Assembly: GCA_030614005.1 (NCBI GenBank)
Contig: JAUWKS010000004.1
Location: 60,001-92,000, forward strand
Reading direction: 5' to 3'
DNA from: Candidatus Heimdallarchaeota archaeon
Lineage (GTDB): Archaea; Asgardarchaeota; Heimdallarchaeia; JABLTI01
Length of the DNA stretch: 32,000 bases
The notes below the pieces were generated by a model. That model ran no database searches, was not told where the DNA came from, and saw only the letters and a program-made list of their open reading frames with translations. This document shows, in pieces, positions 2,221 to 8,355 of this stretch. Every line of letters begins with the position of its first letter. The stretch's first letter is position 1. Made by a program: the position numbers and the translations under genes.

Positions 2221-2279
2221 AGTTTTGACACTTTACTTCTTCTTTCTTTTTTTCTTTCTTTAAATTCATTAAGAAAAAG

Positions 2280-2414
2280 TGGAGCACAGGGCGAGATTTG
2301 AATTCGTGCATGAGGAGCAGATGCTACACATGTCTCACGTAAAAGGGATAACTGCCGGTGCAATGCATTTGCATCCGTTTGCAATCCCTCGCCCGGCCGC
2401 TAGACTACCTGTGC
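2280..2414 (-). tRNA. tRNA-Cys(GCA) with encoded CCA and two introns (37/38 at 2350-2378; 53/54 at 2303-2333)
   Basis: Hand folding: acceptor GCACAGG/CCTGTGC, discriminator U73, CCA, anticodon stem AGGGA/TCCCT around TT-GCA-AA, T-stem GTGAG/CTCGC with loop TTCAAAT. Removing 29 and 31 nt gives a 75-nt cloverleaf. Both inserts are flanked by bulge-helix-bulge motifs. Confidence 0.93.
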
Positions 2415-2923
2415 TTGGGTGTTTACGTTAGTTATTGTTCTTCATATCTTATTTTTAAAGATAATGGCAAATATTGCATATCTCAAAACTTTTTTCACAA
2501 TCGAAGAATTTCTTCTGAAAAAATGTAAACAATAAAATAGTCACCTATTGTGACCTCGTTTTGAGACTTCAATTAGTGAATTCGCTTTAAATAGTAATTC
2601 TGTTTAGTTAATTATAGTGGTGAAGAAAGTGATTGAACAAATAAAAATTCGGCTTCAAATGAAGAAAGAAATGAAACCTATTTCCTTCCATACTTCAATG
2701 AAGCGAGACAAATAATAAGCAGGTTAGTAGTACTTACAAAGTTTACTCATCACACACACGATGGTAAGCTTTTGTCTCCGAGAAAAGTCGAATATTAATG
2801 GATAAGGTTGGAGTTTTGTCAGGAACTCCAGCTCTCTTTCCATTTTTGGTTGGTAATGAGGTATTTTTAGTTTTCATAACAATAATCTTATTATACGCAT
2901 ACTTTTCTGTTTTTAACTTGGAG

Positions 2924-6339: not shown

Positions 6340-8226
6340 TTAATTTACTTGTGAAAAGATTGCTCTCAATGACATTAGCATTGGTAAGGTCAAGGGAACA
6401 TAAGGTAAACCTTTAACCTCTTGTTTTATTCGTTTGATTAATTTTTTCTCTGTCATTGGTATTTCTTTTCGTTCTTCTTCTCGTACACGAACGTTGTAAT
6501 TTTTTGATTCTAGCTCTTTTTCACCGACTACTATAATGTAGGGTATCCATTCTTTCTCTGCAGCACGAATCTTTTTACCTACACGTTCTGAACGGTCATC
6601 GATATCAACTCTAATGTTATCTTTTTGGAATTTTTTAGCTAATTTCTTACAGTGGGAAATGAAATCTTCATTTACAGGTAATAATCGTACCTGAGTTGGC
6701 GATAACCAAACTGGAAACATAGGAGCTTTTCCTTGAATTTGTTCAGTATAGGCTTTTTCAAGGATAGCGTAAACTATTCTTTCAATGGCTCCGGATATAC
6801 TGGTATGTAAGATAATTGGTCTCTGTTGTTCGTTGTTCTTGTCAATGTAACTTATATCAAAACGTTCCGCATTTTCAATATCTATTTGCACAGTACTTAA
6901 AGCTGAGGCTTTGTTTTGATTATCTACGAAATTGAACTCAAACTTGCAAATGAAATAAGCATACATTTTATCGTAGGTTTCGATTAAAGCAGGTCTATTT
7001 CGAGCTTTTACCATTTCTTGGAACCATTTCTTATTTTTCTCAAAGAAATCTTTCTGTGAACGAAACGCTGATTCATAATCTAACTCGAAAGCATCTAGTG
7101 TCTCCATTGAGAGATCAAATTGCTCTCTAAAGTATTTTTGAGCAGATTTGACATCTTTAGTAATAGTGTGCATATCGGGCATAGTGAAGGTTCGTAATCT
7201 GCGCAAAGCAGCCAATTCTCCTCTTTGTTCTCTTCTAAAGGAATAATGACTCATTTCAAATAATTTAACTGGAAGGTTATTATAGGAAATTATTGAATCT
7301 GCGCTCATTAGAAATTGCCCAAAGCATGCAGCAAAACGAAGGAAGTAATTGTCAGTGCCTGATTTTAGCATATATTGCCTTGCAGGAAATCTGTGCATAT
7401 ATTTCTCAATTGCTGGATGAGTATAGCTGTACATAATTGGACTTTCAATGGGCATACCACCATATTCAATTGTTTTATTCTTCACAAATTCCTCTATGAG
7501 ATATTTTACCATCCAACCTTTTGGATACCAGCGAAAATTACCTGCATCACTTCCAGGTTCGTAATCCACTAAAGCTAATTTTCTCATTAATAGTGCATGT
7601 GGAGGAGGAACCTCAGAAGAACGAAGTTTTTCAGTTTCATATTTAGCGAATTTTTCTAATTTTTTGTTAGTGCCAAATTTGTAATTTTTTACAGGTGTTA
7701 ACGTGCCATCAGGATCCATTATGAAGAATTCATGCTTGGATTCTTCCTCAGCTTTTAATGCTTCACTTTCCATTAAAGTGCCATCTGCTTCCTTTACAAT
7801 GACATCATCTGCAATAATTGAACGTGATAACTCAGAGAGTGGATGTCCTTTACATTTTATGTTAAATGCCTTGTACCAACCGAAAGGAGCACGAGTTATA
7901 GTAAAACCTTTTTCTTTTAGAGAAGCTTCCATAATTTTCAATACACGTAAGGCAACATCTGGTCTCGAGGGAGTATTTGAAATATGCACCCATGGATAGA
8001 GTACAACATTCTTTGTTCCAAGCTGTTCAGTTATTGATTCAACTTCAATGACTGCTTTTTCAGCTACATTTTCGAAATGGTCTTCGTCTCCTTTCTCCAC
8101 TGAGGAGAAGACTACTAAACATTCTTCTACTCTCTTGAGTTTCTTCTCAATTTCTTCGGCTGCTTTAAGAGCCTTCTTTTTTGGTTCAAATTCAATGAAA
8201 TCTGAATGCACGGTTAAAATGCGCAA
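6340..8226 (-). CDS. thrS: Threonyl-tRNA synthetase, archaeal type with N-terminal editing domain
   Basis: RILTVHSDFIEFE, PWVHIS, APFGWYKAF, LRFAACFG, FRREQRGE and SGAIER. Start reassigned to TTG at 8226, preceded by GGTGG. Confidence 0.96.
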   Translation of the reverse strand: MRILTVHSDFIEFEPKKKALKAAEEIEKKLKRVEECLVVFSSVEKGDEDHFENVAEKAVIEVESITEQLGTKNVVLYPWVHISNTPSRPDVALRVLKIMEASLKEKGFTITRAPFGWYKAFNIKCKGHPLSELSRSIIADDVIVKEADGTLMESEALKAEEESKHEFFIMDPDGTLTPVKNYKFGTNKKLEKFAKYETEKLRSSEVPPPHALLMRKLALVDYEPGSDAGNFRWYPKGWMVKYLIEEFVKNKTIEYGGMPIESPIMYSYTHPAIEKYMHRFPARQYMLKSGTDNYFLRFAACFGQFLMSADSIISYNNLPVKLFEMSHYSFRREQRGELAALRRLRTFTMPDMHTITKDVKSAQKYFREQFDLSMETLDAFELDYESAFRSQKDFFEKNKKWFQEMVKARNRPALIETYDKMYAYFICKFEFNFVDNQNKASALSTVQIDIENAERFDISYIDKNNEQQRPIILHTSISGAIERIVYAILEKAYTEQIQGKAPMFPVWLSPTQVRLLPVNEDFISHCKKLAKKFQKDNIRVDIDDRSERVGKKIRAAEKEWIPYIIVVGEKELESKNYNVRVREEERKEIPMTEKKLIKRIKQEVKGLPYVPLTLPMLMSLRAIFSQVN

Positions 8227-8251
8227 AATTAACCACCTGAAATATTGTTTG

Positions 8252-8274
8252 CTAGTACAAATGCTCTGTACTAG
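8252..8274. promoter_or_regulatory. Perfect 8-bp inverted repeat CTAGTACA-N7-TGTACTAG in the thrS leader
   Basis: Read directly; it lies 26-48 nt upstream of the TTG start. Function unknown. Confidence 0.4.
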
Positions 8275-8355
8275 TGAATCCTTTCGATGGAAGAAGTAAT
8301 TAAAGTTTTTTGTAAGCATTGCAGAAATTAAACAAGCATTTCTCGTAGTGGAAAA

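Follow-up and report, generated by a model that had tools for sequence, protein, structure and literature searches.

Non-canonical tRNA introns in Asgard archaea, together with the type of splicing endonuclease (EndA) that goes with them, have been reported since 2018 (PMC5829648, PMC11291895, 10.64898/2026.10.13.758758), so the novelty that the initial annotation implied for such a capacity in an Asgard lineage does not stand. Kaneta et al. (2018) describe an (αβ)2 EndA with the L1/Crenarchaea-specific loop (CSL) in Asgard archaea and take incomplete Asgard tRNA sets as pointing to hidden disrupted genes (PMC5829648). Valentin-Alvarado et al. (2024) count 92–95% of the tRNA genes as interrupted in three complete Asgard genomes, with most tRNA genes of Atabeyarchaeia and Freyarchaeia containing multiple introns, often at non-canonical sites (PMC11291895). 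The preprint of Goswami et al. (2026), which covers 90 Asgard genomes, gives T-arm introns with strong bulge-helix-bulge motifs (BHBs) as a main class and α/β EndA as widespread (10.64898/2026.10.13.758758). The published intron counts of Heimdall-type genomes are lower than those of Atabeyarchaeia and Freyarchaeia. A second related system is that of hyperthermophilic archaea, treated in a review that lists 53/54 among the archaeal non-canonical intron positions (PMC4090602); the review also refers to the large-scale transposition of tRNA introns in Thermoproteales described by Fujishima et al. (2010).

The locus analysed here lies in the window, by which we mean the whole stretch of 32,000 nucleotides of DNA examined, and belongs to a Heimdall-type Asgard archaeon, whose only tRNA-Cys(GCA) gene it in all likelihood is, functional and spliced at both of its introns (Table 1). 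It resembles the published multi-intron tRNAs of Asgard archaea in its host, in the combination of a canonical and a T-arm intron, in having BHBs at the boundaries of both introns, in intron lengths of about 20–30 nt, in the accompanying α/β EndA with an L1/CSL loop, and in that standard tools miss or mis-model such genes. Unlike the heavy published cases (Atabeyarchaeia, Jordiarchaeia/Freyarchaeia), the Heimdall-type genome studied here is only moderately loaded. With the archaeal system reviewed in PMC4090602 it shares the use of 37/38 together with non-canonical positions, including 53/54 and 59/60, as well as relaxed HBh′ motifs and an (αβ)2 EndA with a CSL lysine, whereas it differs from the hyperthermophiles in belonging to a different phylum and in being a sediment organism of low GC content (33.5%). 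The kind of feature is already published, and the gene is a good example of it, not a discovery; what is new here is modest, namely the presence of all four intron states in a single genus. Neither this tRNA-Cys gene nor its four states were found described in the available parts of the papers by Kaneta, Valentin-Alvarado and Goswami and their colleagues.

Table 1. Features of the tRNA-Cys locus, in positions of the window
Feature	Coordinates	Strand	Description
tRNA-Cys(GCA) gene	2280..2414	-	135 nt; mature 75 nt; CCA encoded at 2282-2280; discriminator U73
Exon 1	2379..2414	-	tRNA nucleotides 1-37: acceptor 5′ strand, D-arm, anticodon stem 5′ strand, anticodon GCA
Intron 1	2350..2378	-	29 nt, canonical position 37/38, strict hBHBh′ motif
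Exon 2	2334..2349	-	tRNA nucleotides 38-53: anticodon stem 3′ strand, variable loop, T-stem 5′ strand
Intron 2	2303..2333	-	31 nt, position 53/54, inside the T-arm
Exon 3	2280..2302	-	T-loop UUCAAAU, T-stem 3′ strand, acceptor 3′ strand, U73, CCA
Upstream block	2448..2477	-	30 nt; kept in all orthologues, sister genus included; likely promoter
TATA-like element	2450..2459	-	TTTAAAAATA; 36-45 nt ahead of the mature 5′ end
T-rich run	2271..2279	-	directly 3′ of CCA; similar runs after the orthologous genes, sister genus included; likely terminator

By EndA, the public MAGs closest to this genome bear the title Candidatus Heimdallarchaeota archaeon, with identities of up to 95%, in agreement with the apparent Asgard lineage proposed in the initial annotation, and the neighbouring genes encode archaeal housekeeping proteins (a CTP-dependent riboflavin kinase, a deoxyhypusine synthase, TFE alpha, and a ThrRS with an archaeal editing domain). 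The locus is present in DNA runs of metagenomes from cold seeps and marine sediment. An identical tRNA-Cys gene lies on a 13.5-kb contig that was assembled from a run of another study, so the interrupted gene is not an assembly artefact. In contigs of four DNA runs the gene is seen in its unspliced form only, and there is no RNA run among those matched by either 2.4 kb or 221 nt around the gene. We note that the ThrRS gene of the window (6340-8319) has no in-frame stops; the ThrRS matches in four congeners, G010, G001, G009 and G007 (L042, L043, L049 and L050), have one or two in-frame TGA or TAA stops, which may be alignment edges or MAG errors.

The cloverleaf of the tRNA emerges only once the 29-nt and the 31-nt inserts are both taken out. 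ARAGORN then calls the doubly spliced sequence a tRNA-Cys(gca) of 75 nt, in which the acceptor stem has 7 bp, the discriminator base is U73 and CCA is encoded. The discriminator base U73 is the main identity element for CysRS, and it precedes CCA in the genome containing the window (G000) and in every orthologue. If either insert is left in place, the intron-free mode of ARAGORN returns nothing; in intron mode, a tRNA-Cys with a 29-nt intron at 37/38 is called once intron 2 alone has been removed. Run on the whole window, as on the tRNA-Cys precursor, ARAGORN reports no tRNA, and Rfam gives no match at its gathering score. These null results are failures of the finders rather than evidence against the gene, and the earlier suspicion that standard annotation may overlook it holds for these two common programs. 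With the threshold relaxed, the gene reaches 24.6 bits under the Rfam tRNA model, against a gathering score of 29 bits, in an alignment that forces one 63-nt insertion and a mismatched T-stem. Read literally, this alignment of the covariance model would place one intron of 63 nt in the anticodon loop and give a T-stem of ACGAA/CUCGC, an arrangement whose probability we consider practically negligible, for it leaves two mismatches in the T-stem and one in the anticodon stem, and the 16 nt that separate the two inserts are seen to be exon in orthologues with one intron or none. The single 63-nt insertion is refuted by these intron-less and single-intron orthologues.

Comparison with relatives defines the gene structure. 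Ten other species-level genomes of the same genus (G001–G010) and one genome of a sister genus (G011) were searched, and the loci were read. Both introns are present in G000, G010, G008, G007, G004 and G005, intron 1 alone in G001 and G002, intron 2 alone in G006 and in one metagenome contig, and no intron in G003. The gene of G003 is continuous exactly across the predicted junctions, GCAG|AUCC and GUGAG|UUCGAAU, and the exact splice junctions of the gene in the window are fixed by comparison with this intron-less orthologue. The proposal that the tRNA-Cys is split by two introns, one of 29 nt at 37/38 and one of 31 nt at 53/54, is thereby upheld. Alternative second introns offered by a BHB scan give mature lengths of 80–86 nt, one of them cutting into the anticodon stem; the junctions set by the orthologues with one intron or none rule these alternatives out. 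Spliced in silico, all 12 of the 12 orthologous genes become a 75-nt tRNA-Cys(gca) in ARAGORN. Between G000 and G010 the exons are identical at 74 of 75 positions, intron 1 at 23 of 29 and intron 2 at 20 of 31, and the acceptor, anticodon and T stems show compensatory pair changes among the orthologues.

Intron 1 is enclosed in a BHB in which the cuts would fall after the second bulge nucleotide. The central helix is formed by UUGC (2384-2381, bases 32–35) paired with GCAG (2355-2352) near the intron 3′ end, and is flanked by two bulges of 3 nt each, AA|A and UU|A. The outer helix is the 5-bp anticodon stem plus one further pair, and the inner helix is CGG/CCG, followed by a UGCA/UGCA hairpin. 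With a 4-bp central helix, two 3-nt bulges and flanking helices of at least 2 bp, the motif qualifies as a strict hBHBh′, as had been predicted from the UUGC/GCAG helix and the AAA and UUA bulges. We note that in the orthologues of G001, G008, G002 and G010 the central helix of intron 1 is degenerate, with one to three of the four pairs, so BHB quality is not uniformly kept.

In intron 2, CGUG (2339-2336, bases 48–51) pairs with CACG (2308-2305) at the intron 3′ end to give the central helix, the bulges are AG|A and AA|U, and the inner helix is CAUG/CAUG. The outer helix consists of one A-U pair, a U-C mismatch, and then three A-U pairs. Every element named beforehand for this motif, the weak outer helix included, is found. 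Since a strict outer helix has at least two contiguous pairs, the motif fails the strict definition and is best called relaxed, HBh′-like. In 200,000 trials with shuffled intron 2, all four central pairs together with at least four inner pairs appear 60 times; for shuffled intron 1, all four central pairs together with at least three inner pairs appear 352 times in 200,000. The BHB pairing of both introns is far commoner than in shuffled introns.

Bases 49–51 serve both the second BHB and the T-stem, and because they are used twice the two folds are mutually exclusive, in line with the earlier statement that the second BHB can form only with the T-arm unfolded. The predicted energies of the alternatives are nearly equal, −10.2 kcal/mol for the second BHB versus −11.1 kcal/mol for the T-stem in the local fold, and −42.1 versus −43.8 kcal/mol over the whole precursor, so that the T-stem conformer is predicted to be slightly the more stable. 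From this competition and the weakness of the outer helix one could argue that EndA removes the 37/38 intron only, and that the 31-nt insert leaves in some other way or stays as an expansion of the T-arm. Four observations make this very improbable. The partner within the intron covaries with base 50, which is sensible only with the BHB helix in use; in the intron-less orthologues the mature T-arm has the standard form; the same 31-nt architecture at 53/54 is present in the tRNA-Phe and tRNA-Lys of the genome; and a tRNA with 31 extra nucleotides in its T-loop could not build the conserved elbow.

The covariation is as follows. The central helix of intron 2 is fully paired (four of four) in all 10 orthologues that have this intron, and in the alignment of eight intron-2 genes all nine pairs of the second BHB are standard in every gene, compared with 8–53% when the 3′ partners are slid. 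Three of the pairs change on both sides in this alignment, and compensatory changes preserve the pairing of the central as well as the inner helix. In G004 and G005, base 50 is C instead of U, its partner in the intron is G instead of A, and base 64, with which it pairs in the T-stem, is G as well. With about five independent lineages, the covariation of the second BHB is supportive rather than a statistical proof that its helix is used.

The flanks of the gene carry signals that are likewise kept among relatives. The upstream block with its TATA-like element is likely the promoter of the tRNA-Cys gene, and the T-run after CCA is likely its terminator. The block occurs once in the genome, and this single copy rules it out as a general promoter motif of tRNA genes. 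A near-palindrome, GCAAUAUUUGC, lies just 5′ of the TATA element within the block; it is kept across the genus and the sister genus, is unique in the genome, and might act as a BRE or as the binding site of a specific regulator.

No second tRNA-Cys is found in the genome, which is about 90% complete, by any of four methods: ARAGORN with introns, the Rfam model, BLAST, and a BHB-splicing scan in which a 7-bp acceptor stem plus CCA serves as the seed, up to three BHB candidates are removed, and the product is passed to ARAGORN. The initial annotation had set a separate intact tRNA-Cys, combined with the lack of a spliced product, as the mark of a pseudogene. A decaying pseudogene, disabled by the insert in its T-arm while another tRNA-Cys sits on unassembled DNA, would fit the incompleteness of the genome, the rejection of the precursor by standard finders, and the congener G009, in which only a 3′ fragment of the gene is seen. 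We nevertheless regard it as highly unlikely, in view of the strong purifying selection on the exons with compensatory changes in the stems, the conserved promoter and terminator, the covarying BHB with which the insert is retained across four clades of the genus, and the failure of all four methods to find a replacement. Very probably, then, the tRNA-Cys gene works and its transcript passes through the usual archaeal splicing pathway.

The genome encodes the proteins that such a pathway would use. Two EndA paralogues, each with the N- and C-terminal endonuclease domains (PF01974 and PF02778), are located on different contigs, at L001:1474-2136 and L002:1471-2052, both on the minus strand. The best matches of EndA alpha are catalytic alpha subunits from S. 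tokodaii, A. pernix and P. aerophilum, with E-values of about 1e-36 against the crenarchaeal alpha subunits 2cv8_A and 3p1z_B, of which it is a homologue and not a near-identical copy. It keeps the Tyr/His/Lys triad, and its loop aligns without gaps to that of A. pernix 3p1z_B, the lysine of IRKPQG aligning to K44. K44 of the A. pernix CSL is tied to broad substrate specificity (PMC5829648). The second paralogue has a proline at the position of the catalytic histidine, as expected of a structural beta subunit. By sequence, the endonuclease is of the broad-specificity type, an α/β pair with the CSL lysine in alpha that is predicted to form a heterotetramer. Genes for the RtcB ligase and CysRS are also present.

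From these components we infer the steps of transcription, cleavage and ligation, and the order of intron removal. Transcription from the conserved TATA promoter would give a precursor made up of a leader and about 135 nt of gene sequence, in which the (αβ)2 EndA would cut both introns at the 3-nt bulges of the two BHBs. The first BHB, a strict motif, would extend the anticodon stem. The second would form only when bases 48–51 are paired with the intron 3′ end and the T-stem is unformed, and because its outer helix is weak, its cleavage probably relies on the broad-specificity loop of EndA alpha. RtcB would then ligate the three exons, the T-arm would refold, and CysRS would charge the 75-nt tRNA.

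The tRNA-Cys gene is not the only interrupted tRNA gene of this genome. The BHB-splicing scan recovers 34 tRNA genes with about 25 introns, a rough count that fits the census of the 2026 preprint. Several of these genes are missed by ARAGORN: tRNA-Phe(GAA) (G000:C2:4749-4881, plus strand), with a D-loop intron and a 31-nt intron at 53/54; tRNA-Lys(UUU) (G000:C7:5326-5465, plus strand), with a D-arm intron and a 31-nt intron at 53/54; a tRNA-Met of 180 nt (G000:C36:13355-13534, plus strand), more than half of which is made up by three introns of 31, 41 and 30 nt; and tRNA-Gly(UCC) and tRNA-His, with one D-loop intron each. A second tRNA-Met, at C36:36274-36352, is uninterrupted.

The 53/54 introns of the Cys, Phe and Lys genes are all 31 nt long, start with A, and end with CGAA before UUCAAAU. 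They may be a family spread between genes or the convergent outcome of BHB constraints. Equal-length introns at the same site in several tRNA genes are reminiscent of the transposition in Thermoproteales; unlike there, the letters shared here are mostly forced by the BHB and C48-G49, and intron transposition among the three genes is only a lead.

The distribution of the introns can be set against a tree of ThrRS, a single-gene tree with a midpoint root, in which the genus falls into four clades: (G009, G007), (G000, (G010, G001)), (G005, G004), and (G008, (G006, G003, G002)). Intron 2 is recognisable in all four, with 20–25 of 31 positions identical to G000, and being common to them it was most likely present in the ancestor of the genus; by this reading of the sequences it would later have been lost precisely in G001 and within the clade of G008, G006, G003 and G002. 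The latter clade alone shows all four intron states; whatever its topology, a minimum of three events is needed to account for them, barring an exchange of alleles by recombination. That the genus is in active turnover of its tRNA introns, with the states (+,+), (+,−), (−,+) and (−,−) among close species and at least three precise losses, is a tentative reading that we hold to be possible but rather doubtful.

In the sister genus, the tRNA-Cys gene of G011 (L014, G011:C117, from about locus position 1501, plus strand) has neither intron 1 nor intron 2. Its one intron, 28 nt long and located at 59/60, has a perfect BHB (four of four central pairs, eight inner pairs and five outer pairs), and 59/60 is the sole position in this gene to score so.

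Two observations from G009 are set apart here. Its tRNA-Cys is represented by the 3′ part only, from the variable loop to CCA and without intron 2 (L011, G009:C29, around locus positions 1490-1526), and this part sits behind AT-rich DNA. No 5′ half is found within 1.5 kb or elsewhere in the 86%-complete genome, and two candidate 5′ halves proved to be other tRNAs. The fragment could be one piece of a split gene, a gene with a very long intron, or a remnant. The same genome contains another heavily interrupted tRNA-like gene of about 140 nt (L038, G009:C51:38600-39150, around locus positions 240-385), with an AGACCUG...CAGGUCU acceptor stem and ACCA.

In sum, the locus provides a clean T-arm intron, proven by comparison, in a Heimdall-type Asgard archaeon, while knowledge of archaeal tRNA splicing as such is left unchanged. 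As this is the only tRNA-Cys found in the genome, pipelines that miss it would wrongly report an incomplete tRNA set for the organism. The series of intron states within one genus yields exact junctions without recourse to RNA data, and it indicates that precise intron loss is frequent. If the reading as active turnover is true, then together with the three 31-nt introns at 53/54 it would make this genus a tractable natural system for precise intron loss and for the copying of introns between genes.
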